NCBI GenBank assembly: GCA_018401695.1
Contig: JAGYKD010000002.1
Coordinates: 238,636 to 302,635 of the forward strand
Reading direction: 5' to 3'
Length of the DNA stretch: 64,000 nt
DNA from: Flavobacteriales bacterium
GTDB lineage: Bacteria; Bacteroidota; Bacteroidia; CAIKAF01
Each line of letters opens with the position of its first letter. Position 1 is the first letter of the stretch. The position numbers were made by a program, and so were the translations under genes. The notes under the pieces were generated by a model, which did no database searches, was not told the origin of the DNA, and was given only the letters and a program-made list of their open reading frames with translations. Below are positions 4,393 through 61,728 of this stretch, piece after piece.

Positions 4393-5571
4393 TTAAACCT
4401 TTTCGATCACTAAGGCACTTGCCCCTCCTCCTCCATTGCAAAGGGAAGCTACGCCGTATTTCCCGTTTTCTTGATGGAGTACCGAAACCAAAGTAGCCGT
4501 AATCCGTGAACCGGAAGAGCCTAAGGGGTGTCCTAAGGAAACCCCACCACCATAAACATTTACCTTATTGGCATCTAGCCCCAACTTTTGATTGTTGGCT
4601 AGCGCAACAACTGCAAATGCTTCGTTGAGCTCGTAAAAATCGACCTGATCTTGTGTTATTCCGGCGCGCTCCAAAGCCTTGGGAACGGCAAGGCTAGGTG
4701 CAATGGTAAACCAACAAGGCTCCGTTGCGGCATCGGCATATCCAATGATTTTTGCCAAGGGTTTCAGGTCATGTTTTTCGACCGCCTCGGCACTTGCCAA
4801 AATCAAAGCAGAAGCTCCGTCATTCAAGGTAGAAGCATTCGCGGCTGTTACGGTCCCGTCTTTTTGAAAAACCGGCCTCAGGGATGGAATCTTATCAAAA
4901 TGCACGCTTTTGTATTCCTCGTCCTCAACAAAAGCAACAGGGTCTCCTTTGCGTTGAGGAATTTCTACAGGGTAAATTTCGCGAGCGAATTTACCATTCT
5001 GCCAAGCTTTTTCGGCCCTTTGGTACGATTCAATTGCATAAGCATCCTGGTCTTCCCTCGAAATATTCATTTCACGGGCACAGTGTTCTCCTGCATTGCC
5101 CATGTGGTAGTCGTTATATACATCCCACAAACCGTCTTTTACCAAACCATCAAGTACTTGCCCGTGACCAAGCTTTTGACCAAAACGGTTGTTGGTAAGA
5201 TAATAGGGTACTTGAGACATGTTTTCCATACCTCCGGCAACCACTAAATCGTTTTGTCCAAGCATAATGGACTGAGCACCCAGCATGATTGCTTTCATTC
5301 CGGAGGCACAGACCTTGTTTACCGTGGTACAGGGCACCGTATCGGGGATTCCTGCTCCAATAGAAGCTTGGCGAGCGGGAGCCTGTCCCAATCCTGCCGA
5401 CAATACATTGCCCATATACACTTCTTGAATAGCCTCAGGACTTAAGCCCGACTCTTTTAGTGCACCTTGAATGGCAAAACTGCCTAGTTTGGTAGCACTT
5501 AGGTCTTTTAGGCTTCCTCCAAAACTTCCCATGGCCGTGCGCCCTGCCGCTACTATATATACTTCTTTCAT
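4393..5571 (-). CDS. acetyl-CoA C-acetyltransferase (thiolase II)
   Basis: MKEVYIVAAGRTAMGSFGGSL N-terminus, a CxS active site and the C-terminal NGGGGASA thiolase signature. Confidence 0.85.
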   Translation of the reverse strand: MKEVYIVAAGRTAMGSFGGSLKDLSATKLGSFAIQGALKESGLSPEAIQEVYMGNVLSAGLGQAPARQASIGAGIPDTVPCTTVNKVCASGMKAIMLGAQSIMLGQNDLVVAGGMENMSQVPYYLTNNRFGQKLGHGQVLDGLVKDGLWDVYNDYHMGNAGEHCAREMNISREDQDAYAIESYQRAEKAWQNGKFAREIYPVEIPQRKGDPVAFVEDEEYKSVHFDKIPSLRPVFQKDGTVTAANASTLNDGASALILASAEAVEKHDLKPLAKIIGYADAATEPCWFTIAPSLAVPKALERAGITQDQVDFYELNEAFAVVALANNQKLGLDANKVNVYGGGVSLGHPLGSSGSRITATLVSVLHQENGKYGVASLCNGGGGASALVIEKV

Positions 5572-10248: not shown

Positions 10249-10441
10249 ACACAAATATACCTGCCTGGTTTAATCCTCGGGCATTTGCTAAGGATTTTTA
10301 GTTTTTTTTGAGGTTCTTCGCCCGATTTTTTGTGCTATGCTTCGCCGGAAAAATCTTACCGGTATCGGTATGAAGCTTCGATTATTAACCTTGAGTGGAA
10401 AAATTGAACTTTCAAGATTTTCTTCTCCCTGAAATTGGCTT

Positions 10442-10509
10442 AAAATCTCTACATGAACTTTTTTAATTAACTGATAAACAGAATTCATTGTTTTTTAAAA
10501 TCTCTACAT
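10442..10509 (+). repeat. 68 bp paired-motif element (AAAATCTCTACAT x2, 55 bp apart), copy A
   Basis: Same motif pair with identical spacing and a similar spacer at 51596-51663. Confidence 0.6.
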
Positions 10510-10700
10510 ACCCAAAGTAGAAAGTCGAGCCATTTGGGCCCCGGCATCTACAAAAATCCTCCTCCGTATGGGCGTCCACTCCAGCCTCACCCTTGGCATG
10601 GCACGGTCTGCCAACCGCCCTAGGGTGTTTCAACACCCCAGGGCGGGGCATACCGGCCTTGCCAAGGGCGGGGTCTTCCGTTCAAGCCCGGGGGCCATTT
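10510..10700. ncRNA. candidate structured RNA / GC-rich hairpin cluster (unclassified)
   Basis: 65% GC block in a 1 kb gene-free gap. Contains a 12/13 bp hairpin CCGCCCTAGGGTG-TTTCAA-CACCCCAGGGCGG. No tmRNA, RNase P or SRP signature motifs were found. Confidence 0.2.
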
Positions 10701-11282
10701 TATGAAGTTTTTGGTCCCTATTGCTTTGTTTCAAAAGAAAATGCCGGGCTTTACTTTGCGGAGGATAGGATCTTTTTGAAAATGCTAAACGCTAGGGTAG
10801 GTGCACCCCAAAGGGACAAGCACAATCCGTCTAAAGACCATACAGCCTTGCCACAACTTTCCAAAGAGCATAAGGTTTGAATGCAAAGATTCGCTTTTAG
10901 AGGCATAGATTTCGGCCAGGACATGGAAGAGTAAATGATCCGGCGCAGGGACCGAGCCGGTACCCCCCTTTTGGGCTCCGAATGAGGGCCTGCCGGAAGG
11001 AGCGACTATAAGAAGCTCCCTTGCGGCAGAAAGAGACCGTTGATTTACACCTATTCTGGCGGCATACCAGTCCTGACCGAAGCGTCAGGAGATTTTCGAT
11101 TTGTCCACGCCTTAATCTGTACCGACGCTAGGGTCGGCATCAATGGACCTCGAAAATGCTATCCGTCAAAGGCCTCTATGTAAATTTTTAAAAAATCAAT
11201 TGCCCGAATTCGGAGGCCAAAAGGGGAGTAAAGGGGAGGGCCCGGAAGCCCCGCCAACAGAGAATGCCTAATGGTGTATTGG

Positions 11283-11304
11283 AAGAAGCGGGGCTTGCGC
11301 CCCA
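11283..11304 (-). terminator. putative intrinsic terminator of the PiT-like gene
   Basis: On the minus strand GGGGC-GCAA-GCCCC is followed by GCTTCTTCC, directly after the stop codon. The T-tract is weak. Confidence 0.3.
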
Positions 11305-11307
11305 CCA

Positions 11308-12453
11308 TTACAACAATTCGTCGATGAGTTGTTGGTTAACGGCCAGGGCAAGAATAATCGATACCAACAAGCCTATGAGGGCGAATACTACATCGCGAAG
11401 CACCATTTTGATGGCAATGCGTTTGTGGTGGAAGCCGCTTTTTTTCCGCATGATGGATATAGCGATTTCGCGACCGCCAATAATGCCCAAAAACACCCAG
11501 GTGGTGCTCATGGGTACGGTACTGATAAACAGTTTGTAAATGAGCATAATGGCGTAGCTGAAGTCGATGAGGGTGGCGGCGCGCACGTCGTCGATGCGTT
11601 TTTTTTCGCTTACGATGTTCTGAATTTTGTCGCCACGTTGGTACATAAGCAATCCCAATCCGGCAAAAATGAGTCCGGCAAATCCAAGAAACTCCCAAAT
11701 ATTGAGTTGTCGAGGCAGGTAAACGGCAATGTTGGCTGCGTCTTGCATGAGCCAAACTCCCCAAAGCGTGCCGCTGATGAGCCATTGTGCCACAATCCAA
11801 CCCTTGGCATGTCTTCGTCCGCTAAAGAATTTTCGAATGATGGAGTAGCCGCCAATCCAAATGACCATGGAAAGGACAAAAGCCATTCCATAACCGCTTA
11901 CGCTTTTTACAAATACCGAGGAAATACCTGAAGCGCTGGCGGAGAAGCAGCTGAGCAGCAAAAAGGTAGTTGAAACCGGCATGCGCAAACGGGTGAGCAC
12001 CAGTAAAATGAGTGGCGCCACCACTTGAATAAAGGAAAAACCTTGTTCGGCCGTGGGTTGCGGATAGGGGGAGTGCTGGGGTAAATCGGGATATTTACTT
12101 GGGTTGTAAATGCGTTGGTAGGTTACATCGCCATCAAAAACAATCCAACTAAAGGAAACCACGGCCAAAAAAATTAAACCGGCAAAAAGCCATAGGATCC
12201 ACCAGGGTCTACGCGCATTACTGACAATAAAAGTGCCTAGGGTTTGAATGGAGTCGTTGGCAACAGCTGCATAGCCGGCAAAAATAAATCCGAGCCACAT
12301 GGCTACAGAATGCACCTGATAAAAAATACCGGAAATGGTAAAGCCCAATACAATGAGCAACAAGAAGCTCCGTTCGCGGAGTACAATTTCGAGGAAGTTG
12401 AACCTCCTGCGGGCTAGAACCGGCTGCAATTGCGGACTGGATTTCTGTGGCAT
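11308..12453 (-). CDS. inorganic phosphate transporter (PiT family), tentative
   Basis: Polytopic membrane protein with an ANDxxxxxGT-like motif near the N-terminus and a second hydrophobic half. Confidence 0.45.
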   Translation of the reverse strand: MPQKSSPQLQPVLARRRFNFLEIVLRERSFLLLIVLGFTISGIFYQVHSVAMWLGFIFAGYAAVANDSIQTLGTFIVSNARRPWWILWLFAGLIFLAVVSFSWIVFDGDVTYQRIYNPSKYPDLPQHSPYPQPTAEQGFSFIQVVAPLILLVLTRLRMPVSTTFLLLSCFSASASGISSVFVKSVSGYGMAFVLSMVIWIGGYSIIRKFFSGRRHAKGWIVAQWLISGTLWGVWLMQDAANIAVYLPRQLNIWEFLGFAGLIFAGLGLLMYQRGDKIQNIVSEKKRIDDVRAATLIDFSYAIMLIYKLFISTVPMSTTWVFLGIIGGREIAISIMRKKSGFHHKRIAIKMVLRDVVFALIGLLVSIILALAVNQQLIDELL

Positions 12454-13697: not shown

Positions 13698-14501
13698 ATG
13701 GGTAAAGTAATTTCCATTGCAAACCAAAAGGGTGGCGTGGGTAAGACCACCACGGCCATAAATTTAGCGGCGGGTTTGGCCGTTTTGGAGTTTAAGACAT
13801 TAATTATTGATGCCGATCCTCAAGCCAATGCCACTTCCGGTGTCGGCTTTGACCATAAGGCCGTCCAAAGTTCCATATACGATTGCATTCTAAACGAGGT
13901 GAAACCCGAGGATATTATTCTGGAAACCAAAACGCCTCATTTGGATATTATTCCGGCGCATATTGATTTGGTAGGCGCTGAAATTGAGCTCATTAATCTG
14001 CCGCACAGGGAGCAAAAAATGAAAGAGGTAATTGACGAAATCAAGCACCTCTACGATTTTATCATTATAGATTGCTCGCCCTCTTTAGGGCTTATAACGG
14101 TAAATGCCCTTACGGCCTCCAATTCGGTGATTGTACCCGTGCAATGCGAGTATTTTGCCTTGGAAGGTTTGGGCAAGCTGTTGAATACCATTCGTATTGT
14201 TCAGTCCAATTTGAACCCGGAATTGGAAATGGAAGGCATATTGCTTACTATGTTCGATAAGCGATTGCGGTTGTCGAATCAGGTGGTAGAAGACGTACGT
14301 ACCCATTTTCAGGACATGGTGTTTCAAACCATTATTGCGCGCAATACCACCTTGGGCGAAGCTCCAAGCTTTGGAGAAACCGTAATTATGTTCGATGCGG
14401 AGAGCCGCGGTGCGCAAAACTATTTGGACATGGCCAGGGAGCTCATACGTAAGAACAATATTCGAAAAGAACAATCGGTATTGCACACCACAAAGGCCTA
14501 A
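13698..14501 (+). CDS. parA: chromosome partitioning ATPase ParA/Soj
   Basis: [14 protein letters not shown] deviant Walker A motif. 267 aa. Confidence 0.9.
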
Positions 14502-14514
14502 GTAAGATATTGGT

Positions 14515-15387
14515 ATGGCACAAAGAAAAAAAGCATTAGGCAAAGGATTGGGTGCCTTGTTGGCTGCCAGAGAAGAAGAGCAATCCTCCGATCATCATTC
14601 GGTTTCGTCCTCCGGTTCGGGAAGCATTGCTTTAATTGAAGTAAAAGATATTGTAGCCAATCGACTTCAACCCAGAACAGAATTTGAAACGGAGGCCTTA
14701 GAGGATTTGTCGGAATCCATTCGGCAGTTTGGCATTATTCAGCCCATAACCGTTCGAAAAACGGACGCGTCTTCCTATGAACTTATTTCCGGGGAGCGTC
14801 GGTTTAGGGCTTCTCAAATGGCAGGCCTAACCGAAGTGCCCGCTTATGTGCGGGAAGCAGACGACCAGGCCATGCTGGAAATGGCCTTGATTGAGAATAT
14901 CCATAGGGAAGACTTAAATGCCATGGAAATTGCGCTGTCTTACCAAAAGCTTATGGACGATTTTCAGTTTACCCAGGAACAGTTGTCTTCCAGGGTGGCC
15001 AAAAAGCGTTCTACCATTACCAATTACCTGAGGTTGCTCAAATTACCTGTCGAAATTCAATCGGGAATTATCGAGGGAATTATAAGCATGGGGCATGCCC
15101 GCGCCTTGGTCAATGCCGGTTCGGAGGAACGTCAAGTGGCCTTATATCGGATGGTCCTGGACAAAGGTTTGTCGGTACGCCAAGTGGAATCCTTGGTAAA
15201 ATCTCCGGAATCCAAACCTGCACCGGTTACCAAAGTTCAAAAGATGCGGATTAAACCGGGGGCTTGGGCTGGCGATTTTAAACCCAAAATGGAGGCCAAA
15301 ATGGGAGAAGAGGGCAAAGGAGCCATTACCATTCGCTTTGAATCCAAAGAAGAGTATGAGCGGTTGGTGCAGCATTTGAGCCAATGA
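14515..15387 (+). CDS. parB: chromosome partitioning protein ParB/Spo0J
   Basis: GERRFRAS ParB box and a helix-turn-helix, located directly after parA. Confidence 0.9.
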   Translation: MAQRKKALGKGLGALLAAREEEQSSDHHSVSSSGSGSIALIEVKDIVANRLQPRTEFETEALEDLSESIRQFGIIQPITVRKTDASSYELISGERRFRASQMAGLTEVPAYVREADDQAMLEMALIENIHREDLNAMEIALSYQKLMDDFQFTQEQLSSRVAKKRSTITNYLRLLKLPVEIQSGIIEGIISMGHARALVNAGSEERQVALYRMVLDKGLSVRQVESLVKSPESKPAPVTKVQKMRIKPGAWAGDFKPKMEAKMGEEGKGAITIRFESKEEYERLVQHLSQ

Positions 15388-22671: not shown

Positions 22672-22923
22672 GAGCTGTAGTCTATGGCCTAAAGTTGTTC
22701 AATTTTTTTGGGATGCCCAAAGGCTTTATTTATAGGGGCCGCTTTTCCGGTGCTTTGCACCATCGGCTTTGCGCCCGGGCGCTTTTGCAGCCGGCTGCAG
22801 GGGCTTGCTGCGCGCCGCCGCTGCCCCGGCGCAAAAGCTGCCCGGCCGCTTCAGCAGGCTGGTACTGTCGCCCCGGGCGGAATCGAAACTGTGGTATTTT
22901 CCCCTACCTTTGTGCTTTAAATC

Positions 22924-28514: not shown

Positions 28515-28681
28515 GGAAGATAAAGCGCCCCCGGGCGAACGGAAAGCCCGGAAAGCGGCCAGCCCCTACGCTTGGCAGGCGGAGGCGGCACAAAGTAAGC
28601 CCACGCACTGCCTAGCGAAGGGTGCTGACCGCTTGAGGACTTGCAGGGAGCACGGGAATTTGGCGCCCAAACCATCCTTTT

Positions 28682-33735: not shown

Positions 33736-33995
33736 ATGGCTGTTTTGGACAAATATACACGACTGAGGGGATTTTTTGGGGCGCCTTTTCGGGCTTTCGG
33801 CGGTAGTGCCTTTGGAGTAGGCTGTCGGGCTCGGGGCTCCGGGCTCTGCAGCCGAGCTGCAGCGTCCTCGCCTCCGGCCCGAACAAGCCTCCTCCTACAG
33901 GCAGCTACCTGCCTCTATCCCGGGCGCAGTGCTCCGTTTTAAAACATTCCTTAGCGCTGTGGTGTTTTTTTTGTAAAATTGCATCTATACAGCTT

Positions 33996-45053: not shown

Positions 45054-46072
45054 TACATTGGGAAGAACCTTGGTTTTTATTCGGCCTTTTGGCACTGCCC
45101 TTAGGTATGGCTATCGGCTTTATTTTGCTTAAACAAGCCCAAAACAGGTTAAAAAGGCTGGGCAAGCCCAAAAATACTGCCCAAACTTTGCCCTTATACC
45201 AACCCAAGCGCCTCTTGGCACGACACTTCTTGCTTGGTTTGGCAGGTTCCCTCCTGGCGGTAGCTTTGGCCAGACCCCAATGGGGACAAAGAACGGTCGA
45301 AACGGAACGAAAGGGTATGTATTTGGTCCTGGCCGTCGATGTTTCGCAAAGCATGCTTGCCGAAGACGTAAAACCCAACAGACTTTACCGGGCCAAACAA
45401 GCCGCTATTCATTGGCTCGACGACTTAAACAACGACCAATTAGCCCTGGTTGTCTTTGCCGCCACAGCACAAATTCAAATGCCCATGACCTCCGATTATG
45501 GGGCTGCCCGGCTCTACTTGGAATCTATCGATCAACTTAATCCGGATTTGCAAGGAACTTCCTTAAAAGAAGCTCTTGCCGCTGCCTACAAAGCCATTCC
45601 CCAAGAACGCGAGGCCGATGCCGCCGTTATTTTAATTTCCGACGGAGAAGACCATGAAGGAGAAGCTCTCGAAATGGCAGCTAAAATGGCCGACGAAGGC
45701 ATCGAAGTCCACACGCTTTCCGTAGGATTAAACCAGGCGGTACCCATCCCCATGGGAAACGGATACCTCAAAGACGAGGCCGGAAAAATGGCCTTAACCA
45801 AGCCCAACAAACAAATGCTCGCCCAATTGGCCGACATGGGCGGAGGTACTTTTGCCGATGACCCACACCCCGAACAAGCCTTAAATAGAATTTTTGCCGC
45901 ACTGGAAGAAAAACAACGCGAAAGCTTTACCAGTGAAATCAAAGAAGAGGGTAGGGAAGAACACGCCGGATGGTTTGTGGCCGCTGCCCTTGTATTGCTT
46001 TCCGTAGAATTGTTTTGGAAAAACACTCGAAAACCTCACGCTAAGGTATGGACATGGTTTGGAAATGCTTGA
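45050..46072 (+). CDS. batB: aerotolerance protein BatB (vWA domain)
   Basis: vWA MIDAS motif (DVSQSM). Confidence 0.8.
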   Translation: MIHWEEPWFLFGLLALPLGMAIGFILLKQAQNRLKRLGKPKNTAQTLPLYQPKRLLARHFLLGLAGSLLAVALARPQWGQRTVETERKGMYLVLAVDVSQSMLAEDVKPNRLYRAKQAAIHWLDDLNNDQLALVVFAATAQIQMPMTSDYGAARLYLESIDQLNPDLQGTSLKEALAAAYKAIPQEREADAAVILISDGEDHEGEALEMAAKMADEGIEVHTLSVGLNQAVPIPMGNGYLKDEAGKMALTKPNKQMLAQLADMGGGTFADDPHPEQALNRIFAALEEKQRESFTSEIKEEGREEHAGWFVAAALVLLSVELFWKNTRKPHAKVWTWFGNA

Positions 46073-46791
46073 CCCTTTGCCTGATGGTATGTACATCGGC
46101 CTCGGTCTCGGCTCAACAAGCCGAGCGCCCTTGGTATGAAGCACCCCCTTACCGCTTGTTGCGGGAAGGTAATGCCGCCCTCGAACAAGGAAATATACAA
46201 GAGGCTATGAAGGCTTATCAAGCCTACGGTGAACGTATGCCCAACGACCCCAGATGGCAATACAACCTCGGAAATGCGCTGTTTAAAAACGGACAAGCCG
46301 ATAGCGCAAGGCATTGGTACCAACAAGCAGCCCAAAACCTCAACGACCCCAACCATCAGTCCAAAGCTTGGCACAACCTGGGCAACAGTTATATGCAAGC
46401 AGAGGATTTCCCTAAAGCAGTAGAGGCCTACAAAAAATCCCTGCTTGCCAATCCTAAGGCAGAAAACACCCGCTACAATTTAAGCTATGCGTTGAAAAAA
46501 TTGCAACAGCAGCAACAACAGCAAGATCAGCAGCAACAACAGCAACAACAGCAACAAGAGCAGCAGCAAGAGCAGCAGCAAGAGCAGCAGCAAGAGCAGC
46601 AGCAAGAGCAGCAGCAAGAGCAAGAGCAGCAGCAAGAGCAACAAGAACGCAATCAGCAAAAAAATCAGGAGCTAACCAGAGAACAAGCCCAACGCTTACT
46701 CGACGCCTTAGATCGAGACGAAAAAGAACTGCAACAAAAGAAAATGGAATCCGGGGATGCCCCCCAAAAAAGAATAAAAAAGCCATGGTAA
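46048..46791 (+). CDS. batC: aerotolerance protein BatC (TPR repeats + Gln/Glu-rich tract)
   Basis: Signal peptide, TPRs, then a roughly 50-residue Q/E low-complexity stretch. Confidence 0.7.
   Translation: MDMVWKCLTLCLMVCTSASVSAQQAERPWYEAPPYRLLREGNAALEQGNIQEAMKAYQAYGERMPNDPRWQYNLGNALFKNGQADSARHWYQQAAQNLNDPNHQSKAWHNLGNSYMQAEDFPKAVEAYKKSLLANPKAENTRYNLSYALKKLQQQQQQQDQQQQQQQQQQEQQQEQQQEQQQEQQQEQQQEQEQQQEQQERNQQKNQELTREQAQRLLDALDRDEKELQQKKMESGDAPQKRIKKPW
46501..46650 (+). repeat. CAG/CAA trinucleotide-rich tract with perfect 12 bp repeat (CAGCAGCAAGAG) x5 inside batC
   Basis: Direct reading of 46561-46620. In-frame and encodes (QQQE)n. Confidence 0.9.
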
Positions 46792-51273: not shown

Positions 51274-51394
51274 GTCTACCCTTTAAAAAGCTGCCCGACC
51301 CATAAAAATGTACGATGGGTTATTTGGGCGCCTAATCCGTCTCCGGCCATTAGCTGCCTTGTGGGCTAGCTACGCCGCTAAGCGTAGGCAAGGA

Positions 51395-51535
51395 GCTTCC
51401 TCTGGTCGCTCTTGCCTCCGCAGCGGCTGAGCAGCCCACATCGTCAGGCTAATTGGCCTGCGCCGGGGCGCGTTAAGCTCCGTGTGTATTTTTTTTGAAT
51501 GATGGCCCACAGTTGAAACCGTGGGCGGTAGTGCG
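51395..51535 (+). repeat. ~140 bp direct repeat, copy 1 (…GGTCGCTCTTGCC…CGTCAGGCTAATTGGCCTGCGCCGGGGCGCGTTAAGCTCCGTGTG…GTTGAAACCGTGGGC)
   Basis: About 85% identical to 51985-52123. Confidence 0.8.
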
Positions 51536-51595
51536 GGTGAAATCATGGGATGCGGTTGAAACCGTGGGCTGTGGTGTGGCCATTTTTAAAGGGAA

Positions 51596-51663
51596 AAATC
51601 TCTACATGGCTTTGTTTAGTTAATTGATTATCAACTGTTTTTTAAAACGAAAATCTCTACATC
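51596..51663 (+). repeat. 68 bp paired-motif element (AAAATCTCTACAT x2, 55 bp apart), copy B
   Basis: Homologous to 10442-10509, including the spacer. Confidence 0.6.
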
Positions 51664-51699
51664 CATAGTTTAAGGCAAAGAGTGCCTGCCAATCGTTCC

Positions 51700-51985
51700 C
51701 TGGCGCAGTTTAAACCGTGGGCTATGGTTTAACCATTGATAATTTCGCCGTTAAATAAACACCTGGGGATTCTATTCTTTCGAGAATTTTAAACCGTTAA
51801 AACGGTTGGCCGGACACGGCATTTCATATAGCCCACGGTTTAAACCGTGGGCTATGGTTTAACCATTGATAATTTCGCCGTTAAATAAACACCTAGGGAT
51901 TCTATTCTTTCGAGAATTTTAAACCGTTAAAACGGTTGGTCCGGACTCGGCATTTCATATAGCCCACGGTTTAAACCGTGGGCTT
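51700..51985 (+). repeat. tandem repeat, ~130 bp unit x2.2, each unit starting with perfect palindrome GCCCACGGTTTAAACCGTGGGC
   Basis: Units at about 51709-51838 and 51839-51969 differ by roughly three substitutions and one indel. A third partial unit follows. Confidence 0.85.
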
Positions 51986-52123
51986 CCTGTGGTCGCTCTT
52001 GGCCGGGCGGCTGCTGAGCACTCTATTTCGTCAGGCTAATTGGCCTGCGCCGGGGCGCGTTACGCTCCGTGTGGATTTTTTTTGAATGATGGCCCACGGT
52101 TGAAACCGTGGGCTATGATTTCA
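51985..52123 (+). repeat. ~140 bp direct repeat, copy 2
   Basis: Matches 51395-51535. Confidence 0.8.
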
Positions 52124-52150
52124 ACCGTGGGTTAAACATCGGTCAACAAG

Positions 52151-52303
52151 AATGCAACGCTTCATTTGCTGAGGCATTGCTATTCGACGCAATTGCTTGA
52201 GGCGGATGTCGATTTGCGGGTCATACAGGAGTTGCTTGGGCATAAGAGAAGATAGACAACAGAGATTTGCACACATGTTAGCAACCGGCTGCTTCAACTG
52301 GTT
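52151..52303 (+). pseudogene. tyrosine recombinase (integrase) C-terminal remnant
   Basis: Translates to …[50 protein letters not shown]. The canonical R-HxxR…LLGH…Y block has a premature stop and Cys in place of the catalytic Tyr. No upstream ORF. Confidence 0.7.
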
Positions 52304-52465
52304 GGTTCACCTTTCAATGACTTGTGAAAACTACTTATATTAGCAAAGGGTAATCGAATGAGGTAAACCATCACTTAGCCTACCATTGAGGGTGGATAAA
52401 TGAGGTTCAACCTCATTTATAAAGGAGTTGGGGCACATGCTAAAATGAACTAAGAACAAAACGAC

Positions 52466-60031: not shown

Positions 60032-60216
60032 TTGCTATTTAATAGCCAAAAACCTTTTGTTCTAACCCAATGGCCTTTAGTGGCCAGCCAAAACGGGACA
60101 ACAAACACCAAGTGCATAAATTTGAGACAAATTCAAGCACTAAAGAACTTTGAATTTGGGCTTTAACCTGAGAGAATGGCTAAGTCCATTCCATTACTCG
60201 GCCAACAAACCCTAGG

Positions 60217-60365
60217 CCACGGTTGAAACCGTGGGCTATGTGAAATGCCGAGGCAGGGCCAACCGTTTTAACGGTTTAAAAATCTTGAAAAAAGGAATCC
60301 CCGCGGTTTTGTTTAATTGCCAAATCATCCATGGTTAAACCATAGCCCCAGGTTTCAACGGCGTT
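60217..60365 (-). repeat. inverted copy of the 130 bp repeat unit plus CCACGGTTGAAACCGTGGG palindrome
   Basis: The reverse complement aligns with 51709-51838 over most of its length. Additional CCACGG/CCGTGG palindromes lie at 60395-60480. Confidence 0.75.
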
Positions 60366-61330: not shown

Positions 61331-61728
61331 ACGCTTGGTGATTTACCGTGAAAAAAAATGGTAGCGTATGGGTGTCTTTATAAGCGCGAATTGTATTTGG
61401 TTATGCTAATGTAATACGGAAGAATAGATATGTTGTTTCAAAAATGCAAAAAAAGTTTAAAATCCGGCTGAGGGACAGCAGAGGAAAGCCGGGCAAGACC
61501 GGGGCATGGCAGCAAGTGCGGGGCGGCAGCGACCAAAGGAAGCTCGCCGGCCGGCCTTGATGCCTGCCCCGGGCGCTGCCCGCTTGGAACGGATGGCCCG
61601 ACGGCAGCCCAACACAGCGTAGACCCTATGCAGGGATAAAGGGATGGGGTAGGGAGAACGAATTGCAGGCATAGAGCTGCCGGCAGCCCCCAAAACCAAA
61701 ATTCCCAATTGTTGTTGACCTTTGCACT

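Follow-up and report, generated by a model that had tools for sequence, protein, structure and literature searches.

Short interspersed repeats of the REP, BIME, ERIC and MITE kinds shape bacterial genome structure, transcript ends and recombination, and nearly all described families are palindromic. REP-type repeats are found mostly downstream of unidirectional or convergent genes and carry an unpaired GTAG or CGTC tag at the end of the palindrome (PMC3733652). REPs are palindromes of 20–40 bp that form stable stem-loops, usually occur as inverted pairs in hundreds of copies, and flank their cognate RAYT. MITEs have terminal inverted repeats and copy-specific target-site duplications, while PATEs of the IS200/IS605 type have subterminal hairpins at both ends that a Y1 transposase recognizes, insertion 3' of a fixed tetra- or pentanucleotide and an orientation that follows the direction of replication. 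CRISPR arrays combine repeats of 23–55 nt with unrelated spacers and, as a rule, cas genes or a leader. Direct repeats accompany a short central palindrome in a further group of sites (iteron-plus-palindrome sites): the double-strand origins of rolling-circle replicons (a nick-site hairpin plus direct repeats), arm-type sites flanking a recombinase core, and P1 parS, in which boxes flank an IHF site. Such sites occur once per replicon or mobile element, beside the gene of the protein that uses them.

Within the 64-kb stretch of DNA analysed here (the window; W denotes its genome), the 13-mer AAAATCTCTACAT has four exact matches, all on the + strand, at 10442, 10497, 51595 and 51650. They form two pairs (10442/10497 and 51595/51650), each spaced 55 bp start to start, and the window holds no other match even with two mismatches allowed. 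As one given 13-mer is expected ~0.002 times in 128 kb (both strands), four exact copies in two equally spaced pairs are not due to chance, and the paired 13-mers 55 bp apart that the initial annotation had picked out at two distant loci are real. Its coordinates for copy A (10442–10509) hold, whereas copy B, which it had placed at 51596–51663, lies one base to the left, at 51595–51662. Its account of the common spacer also stands in part: the two spacers share TGAT(T/A)A(T/A)CA in register and TTAA/TTAG at offset 21, but the TTTTTTAAAA strings that it had matched are out of register, this string overlapping the second 13-mer (DR2) in copy A and ending 2 nt before it in copy B. As it had also noted, both copies lie in gene-free surroundings with structured or repeated DNA: copy A in the spacer 10255–11307, which separates two minus-strand reading frames (an S41 peptidase gene and a 381-aa ORF of unknown function), and copy B in the spacer 51306–52465, after a CitMHS/DASS transporter gene. 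The features of the two loci are as follows.

10442–10454, + strand: first 13-mer (DR1) of copy A, an exact match to AAAATCTCTACAT, 100% identical in the L002 orthologue.
10455–10496, + strand: 42-nt AT-rich spacer of copy A, with TTAA at 10463–10466 and the central box TGATAAACA at 10472–10480, in register with all 21 copies of the family.
10497–10509, + strand: DR2 of copy A; similarity between copies stops sharply at 10509.
10533–10705, + strand: GC-rich rod beside copy A, with 5' end TTTGGGCCCC, a stem at 10584–10672 and a terminator-like hairpin plus T-run at 10675–10704.
51324–51493, + strand: rod of the D2 subfamily upstream of copy B, with a hairpin at 51464–51482 plus T-run; nhmmer E = 3e-38 against other D2 copies.
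51498–51579, + strand: two REP-like palindromes of the GCCCAC(A/G)GTTGAAACCGTGGGC type (family D3), between the D2 tail and copy B.
51595–51607, + strand: DR1 of copy B, an exact match.
51608–51649, + strand: 42-nt spacer of copy B, with TTAG at 51616–51619 and the central box TGATTATCA at 51625–51633.
51650–51662, + strand: DR2 of copy B, an exact match.

The two copies belong to a family. One genome per species was scanned for the 13-mer pair with a gap of 30 to 60 nt, and metagenomes were scanned with a looser 11-mer pair, both scans demanding exact boxes. Seventeen genome loci were returned, 14 of them in J (the MAG Bacteroidia bacterium 2_bin.4, JAUHWY01) and two in CAZJFM01; these 16 true matches are all spaced exactly 55 bp, and the seventeenth (L008) is an unrelated 56-bp satellite. 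The metagenomes contributed three further members with the family spacing (L020, L029 and L041), the other 30 matches being unrelated tandem repeats. The variable spacing elsewhere that the initial annotation had named as a refuting observation was not encountered, and its recurrent element of fixed spacing is borne out by a family of 21 copies (19 beyond the window). These occupy 18 independent loci of a single small Bacteroidia lineage and include three orthologous pairs (copy A/L002, L010/L013 and L003/L020). CAZJFM01, a bin labelled Competibacteraceae, belongs to the same lineage as J, since its DNA is 97% identical to that of J at one common locus. J is the best-sampled genome, with 14 exact copies spread over at least 12 contigs totalling >1.3 Mb; copy number is low, in a census that rests on 8-kb pieces and covers exact-box copies only. 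In ~200 kb searched with a profile, full copies (E ≤ 1e-12) stood apart from noise with no intermediate matches, and ~220 kb of lineage DNA contain no solo or decayed 13-mer (≤1 mismatch). Because both scans demanded exact boxes, the perfect identity of the 13-mers across copies is partly an ascertainment effect.

The family is confined to an isolated lineage, in which relatives of the S41 peptidase are 90–94% identical while the next closest stand at ~62% (Flavobacteriales-like MAGs, e.g., Vicingaceae and Acidiluteibacter); the element is missing from the loci examined in these more distant relatives. The satellite L008 (139–315; MAG CAZBPK01, another Bacteroidia) was set aside: each of its tandem 56-bp units starts with AAAATCTCTACAT, beyond this it does not resemble the family, and the shared 13-mer is probably a coincidence. 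Viral contigs gave no matches to the element, and a viral origin was dropped. A literature search for the motif strings found them only in unrelated primers and siRNAs.

All 21 copies have one layout—a 13-bp direct repeat (box), 17 nt, TGATnATCA, 16 nt and the second box—and none departs from it in length. Aligned in register, the consensus reads (g)aAAA-AAAATCTCTACAT-N8-TTAA-N5-TGAT(T/A)ATCA-N16-AAAATCTCTACAT, an element of ~68–72 bp. Similarity among copies starts a few bases before DR1, in an A-run that is preceded in most copies by G (often as TTGG), and ends sharply after DR2. The central 9-bp palindrome stands at offset 30 in 21 of 21 copies, 28 and 27 bp from the box centres, and the spacer always measures 42 nt despite many homopolymer runs. 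Its remaining positions are 77% A+T, show 51% identity across independent loci (random expectation, 33%), come in two flavours with an A-rich (GAAAAA...) or a T-rich start (GTTTTTG...), and are least conserved, with the lowest information content, where they adjoin the boxes. The length of the element is constrained, and most of its spacer sequence is not. A TCTAC...GTAGA hairpin resembling Cas12a repeats was considered as a family feature and rejected, being limited to copy A and L002 and, in part, L029.

Comparison between species separates the constrained positions from those that drift. Across locus A, W and J are 87.6% identical, yet 10436–10482 is 100% identical between them, as is DR2, while the non-coding flank at 10390–10435 is visibly far more diverged than the element. 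The spacer of copy A matches that of L002 at 36 of 42 positions, the first 28 nt being the same and all six differences falling in the last 14 nt. In the pair L010/L013, the flanks are ~97–98% identical and the spacer differs at 10 of 42 positions, some changes being compensatory; in L003/L020 it differs at 12 of 42, like the diverged downstream flank. The boxes are intact in both pairs. As the boxes stay intact or 100% identical while their surroundings or spacers diverge, selection acts on the boxes; the central box and the length are constrained along with them, and most spacer positions change at about the neutral rate. A hypervariable spacer, suggested by L010/L013 (10 of 42 against ~3% in the flanks), was rejected in favour of near-neutral drift, as the spacer of copy A and L002 is better conserved than its surroundings and that of L003/L020 matches its flank.

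A third orthologue of locus A, L060, lacks the element. Its S41 protein is 90% identical to that of W (W vs. J, 94%), and it keeps both the S41 gene and the rod (87–88% identity), but gene and rod stand ~67 nt closer together, with no 13-mer in between, in an alignment that is imprecise because the flank has diverged and does not fix the exact indel boundaries. As the entire 68-bp unit including both boxes is missing, the whole unit is what was gained or lost, and by this comparison it behaves as an insertion or deletion. The boxes did not arise as target-site duplications, since no solo 13-mer occurs in the ~220 kb of lineage DNA or at the L060 empty site; such duplications were further rejected because the flanking 13-mers are identical in all copies.

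The gene-free spacer around copy A has other features of its own. Upstream of the S41 gene it measures 1050 bp in W and 43–260 bp in the relatives L051, L053 and L055. In the comparison of W with J, two blocks within it (10895–11070 and 11195–11320) visibly exceed the genome average of 87.6% identity, and one such block contains a hairpin, GGAAGGAGCGACTATAAGAAGCTCCCTTGC, that resembles the D2 apex reversed. J has an extra insertion of ~148 bp at the position matching 10790 of the window.

The element is closely associated with GC-rich rods, imperfect long hairpins of ~170 nt with a 5' end TTTGGGCGCC(T/A)TATCC... and a 3' end ...GGGGCGC-N5-GCTCCGT followed by a T-run. At 16 of 18 loci a rod, scored as a 130-nt window with a fold of ≤ −55 kcal/mol, is found no more than 300 nt from the element, and it always flanks the element on one side only (upstream in 10, downstream in six); the 64-kb window overall has ~8 such strongly folding clusters. 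In eight loci—the seven D2 loci and L004, which has a different rod—DR1 stands 20–23 nt after the 3' end of the rod. At copy B, 22 nt of D2 tail are followed by inserted REPs before DR1, and in the other seven composites DR1 comes 20–23 nt after the rod end ..CTCCG(T/A). Other rods occur in either orientation and at variable distance from the element. The D2 subfamily has 12 covarying pairs among seven copies and invariant G-U pairs on the + strand, and its 3' hairpin with T-run scores as terminator-like. The rod beside copy A (fold z = −5.3) has the lowest 130-nt MFE in the window, −80 kcal/mol, and at 93% identity in L002 and 87–88% in L060 it surpasses the coding gene next to it in conservation.

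Rods also occur without the element, at four other places in the window and at the orthologous spacer of the relatives at ~62% protein identity, where the element is missing. By this distribution, rods are older and more widespread than the element. With the rod retained in L060, either the element arrived at locus A beside a pre-existing rod or L060 lost it. The rod superfamily in the window comprises 51324–51493, 10533–10705, 22756–22885, 28515–28675, 33776–33935 and 61471–61600, with a partial member at 51980–52080, and rods are further present in L003, L004, L007, L009, L015–L017, L029, L041, L053, L055, L056 and L060. Its members are better conserved between species than the coding genes beside them. 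The superfamily has no Rfam match; it could be an undescribed family of structured RNAs or terminators, or REPIN-like DNA, and is possibly of more interest than the 68-bp element.

Around copy B, repeats of several further kinds are found. REP-like perfect palindromes of the form (A)TAGCCCACGGTT(T/G)AAACCGTGGGCTAT lie at 51498–51579, 51824–51862, 51955–51984, 52085–52123 and 60208–60246, and match the Acido-Lenti-1 hairpin model below threshold. Downstream of copy B, 51708–51939 is a tandem duplication of a 130-bp unit (99% identical), of which an inverted copy (76–82%) lies ~8.3 kb away at 60207–60363; together they could flag a segment that is invertible or has been rearranged. Elsewhere in the window, at 46486–46671, a long CAG/CAA/GAG codon repeat encodes a Q/E-rich low-complexity tract in the ORF at 46048–46791.

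Set against the described systems, the element resembles each of them in part. Like REPs, BIMEs and REPINs, it is short, dispersed and strictly extragenic and mainly follows co-oriented or convergent genes. Each of the 21 copies is intergenic; of 14 informative loci, 11 have an upstream gene that is co-oriented and ends before the element (in the other three it is divergent), and the downstream gene is convergent in about half of the loci, sometimes ending only 32–101 nt downstream of the element (L015, L004 and L016). Unlike REPs, it consists of two direct repeats 55 bp apart, exists in tens of copies, and has as its conserved palindrome only the 9-bp TGATnATCA in place of a stem-loop of REP size. 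The minus strand of each 13-mer does contain GTAG, but at least 8 nt (8–10) from any stem and twice in direct orientation, which is not the placement of a REP tag. The neighbouring genes of the copies are functionally unrelated and none is conserved, on which grounds both a type III toxin–antitoxin system and CRISPR-like repeats were rejected. CRISPR mini-arrays do share with the element two identical direct repeats around a variable spacer of constant length; however, its repeat is only 13 nt, its spacers are homologous, with TTAA and TGATnATCA in register, and no cas genes were found near the element loci.

The likeness to MITEs, whose remnant ends had been proposed as the origin of the paired 13-mers, survives in one respect. 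The element is small, non-coding, multicopy and intergenic, an insertion-like dispersed unit with presence/absence polymorphism at an orthologous site (missing in L060); but both terminal inverted repeats and target-site duplications are lacking, the direct repeats at its ends do not differ between copies, and its 68 bp fall short of the usual MITE size. In place of the paired subterminal hairpins of a PATE it has one weak central hairpin. The iteron-plus-palindrome sites are similar in geometry, with direct repeats at a fixed distance from a short central palindrome, AT-richness and a footprint of ~70 bp, and the central box of the element has TTGAT, as do some HUH nick or target sites; in contrast to them, however, the element has at least 14 dispersed chromosomal copies with unrelated neighbours and no gene that accompanies them.

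No RAYT of its own was found for the element. At L001, a gene for a 157-aa Y1_Tnp protein (RAYT-like, with an HVH motif) at 4880–5353 on the minus strand lies 231 nt from the element, and homologues 82–89% identical occur in L056 (5298–5759), L057 (65–526) and L059 (467–928). These RAYT-like genes are, however, flanked on both sides by a REP of their own, TTAAGCCTCC-AAA-GGAGGCGACAGCTTAA (also written GCCTCC-AAA-GGAGGCGACA, with (G/T)CTTAA after GGAGGCGACA), which is unrelated to the element and was not found in the window; in L057, it is repeated ~8 times downstream of the gene. As the element is also missing beside the homologues in L056, L057 and L059, the RAYT was rejected as its mobilizer, and the adjacency at L001 is best explained by repeats accumulating in one spacer.

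The sigma-A promoter of Bacteroidetes has TTG at −33 and TAnnTTTG at −7, with a spacing of ~19–21 nt. The element does not match this consensus, as had been remarked of the two window copies: on neither strand does TAnnTTTG take a fixed position in the ±100 nt around the 21 copies, and no sigma-70-like sites occur in the element copies. A promoter role is not supported. At the gathering score of Rfam 15, the window and 17 loci gave tRNAs only, and both gene-free spacers gave only chance matches at E ≤ 10, so that a known RNA family was rejected; ARAGORN found no tRNA or tmRNA in the window. Resembling REP/BIME-type repeats in size, location and persistence, but without the features that define REPs, MITEs, CRISPR arrays, Rfam families and promoters, the element is classed here as a previously undescribed repeat of the short interspersed extragenic kind.

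Whether the constraint acts on RNA or on DNA can be judged from the spacers. In some copies, among them L001, L006, L010 and L013, they are nearly perfect 40-nt palindromes, and pairing between left and right spacer arms is better for cognate than for non-cognate combinations (permutation 64/20000). Little or no hairpin is predicted for about a quarter of the copies, both window copies among them (the spacer of copy A has no stable one), neither strand folds better than the other (11 vs. 10, Wilcoxon p = 0.41), and the columns flanking TGA/TCA form Watson–Crick pairs in 10 of 21 copies, which in this manual count on the alignment equals the chance expectation. Because strand asymmetry and flanking covariation are absent, the hairpin is not universal and the length is rigid, the constraint appears to be on duplex DNA geometry rather than on an RNA fold. 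These observations point to the spacer being a DNA-level module rather than RNA, and a selected RNA hairpin within it was rejected on the first three of them. The long palindromes of some copies may be a mutational feature of quasi-palindromes.

Our tentative reading, favoured though held at somewhat less than even confidence, is of short interspersed extragenic DNA elements that form a new family restricted to this lineage, each element being a DNA-level recognition platform that is copied as a whole unit beside rods and mobilized in trans. Specifically, two protomers of a sequence-specific protein would assemble on the direct boxes, with a dimer or a bend at the central palindrome; the whole unit would be copied or inserted into intergenic DNA, preferably right beside pre-existing GC-rich rods; and the element, being non-autonomous, would be mobilized in trans by a putative enzyme. 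It may still be mobile and may benefit its host. Of the roles that the initial annotation had proposed, the paired operator for a regulator of the neighbouring genes is unlikely in its simple form, since most copies follow genes whose functions are unrelated; a protein-binding DNA module in the general sense is the best reading, and a putative one. Among the neighbour genes of its copies, none for a transposase, recombinase or binding protein could be linked to the element, the RAYT-like gene of L001 being the sole candidate close by. Without terminal inverted repeats or target-site duplications, it indicates no known transposition chemistry.

The main rival to this DNA-level reading is a cis-acting RNA element of 3' UTRs, in which + strand read-through would expose two single-stranded AAAAUCUCUACAU around a weak AU hairpin to an RNA-binding protein, a ribonuclease or a trans-acting RNA. 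The placement of the element after co-oriented genes in 11 of 14 loci suits it, as do the copies of L010/L013 and L012, which must be transcribed because a stop codon lies only 2–15 nt upstream of them, and L001, which has a canonical + strand terminator directly after DR2. D2 rods fold best on the + strand and keep their G-U pairs there, the better pairing of cognate spacer arms would be expected of an RNA, and invariant 13-mers suit recognition by base pairing. We nevertheless consider this rival unlikely, given the equal folding of both strands, the weak or missing hairpin in about a quarter of the copies and the lack of covariation beside the TGA/TCA core. In addition, RNA hairpins do not usually combine a strict 42-nt length with free sequence, the element follows a terminator-like hairpin and T-run in the eight rod composites, the upstream gene is divergent at three loci, and Rfam holds no match.

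A chromosomal site of the host, bound by a protein for nucleoid organization, for control of replication or segregation or as a polar barrier, and selected without ever having been mobile, is a more doubtful alternative still. Invariant boxes and spacing around a variable spacer, conservation between species, and tens of oriented copies per genome are what such a site would show, and the window probably lies near the replication origin, since the S41 peptidase locus of relatives (L051, L053 and L055) has dnaA at ~6 kb and dnaN at ~4 kb, and parA/parB (13698–15387) lie 3.2 kb from copy A. Against this stand the scatter of the J copies over many contigs, the absence of the element from L060 and from the loci of the relatives at ~62% identity, the tight rod association, for which a chromosomal site offers no obvious rationale, and GC skew over the 8-kb loci, which is noisy and gives no clear orientation rule relative to replication.

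Least likely is the promoter module for a non-coding transcript that had been suggested for the window copies, possibly for an alternative sigma factor and driving adjacent rod RNAs or other non-coding transcripts: although the right boundary is sharp, with divergence starting immediately after it, fixed motif spacing is typical of promoters, and some promoter must lie between 10255 and 10532, there being no + strand gene upstream of the terminator-ended rod of copy A, the copies lack promoter motifs while lying near the 3' ends of convergent genes (those of L015, L004 and L016 among them) or 2–15 nt after a stop codon, the rod is upstream and not downstream of the element in 10 loci, L060 keeps its rod without the element, and to our knowledge a 55-bp box spacing fits no known promoter geometry.

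A further reading is conceivable though rather improbable: the 68-bp unit as the cis site of an undescribed DNA-processing system, whose single-strand or site-specific enzyme would bind the 13-mers like iterons and act at the TTGAT-containing palindrome, with the rods as insertion landmarks. If true, the element would represent a new class of miniature mobile element, with direct- rather than inverted-repeat ends, coupled to a second and older family of structured repeats. If the element is instead a passive, slowly decaying repeat, it is of local interest only.

For the genome of W, the repeats explain the unusually long gene-free spacers, and they probably also cause assembly breaks. The 13-bp box, used as bait, is a handle for finding the recognizing protein in this uncultured Bacteroidia lineage. 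More generally, a family with invariant direct boxes at a rigid 55-bp spacing, set beside older covarying hairpins, would widen the range of bacterial interspersed elements.
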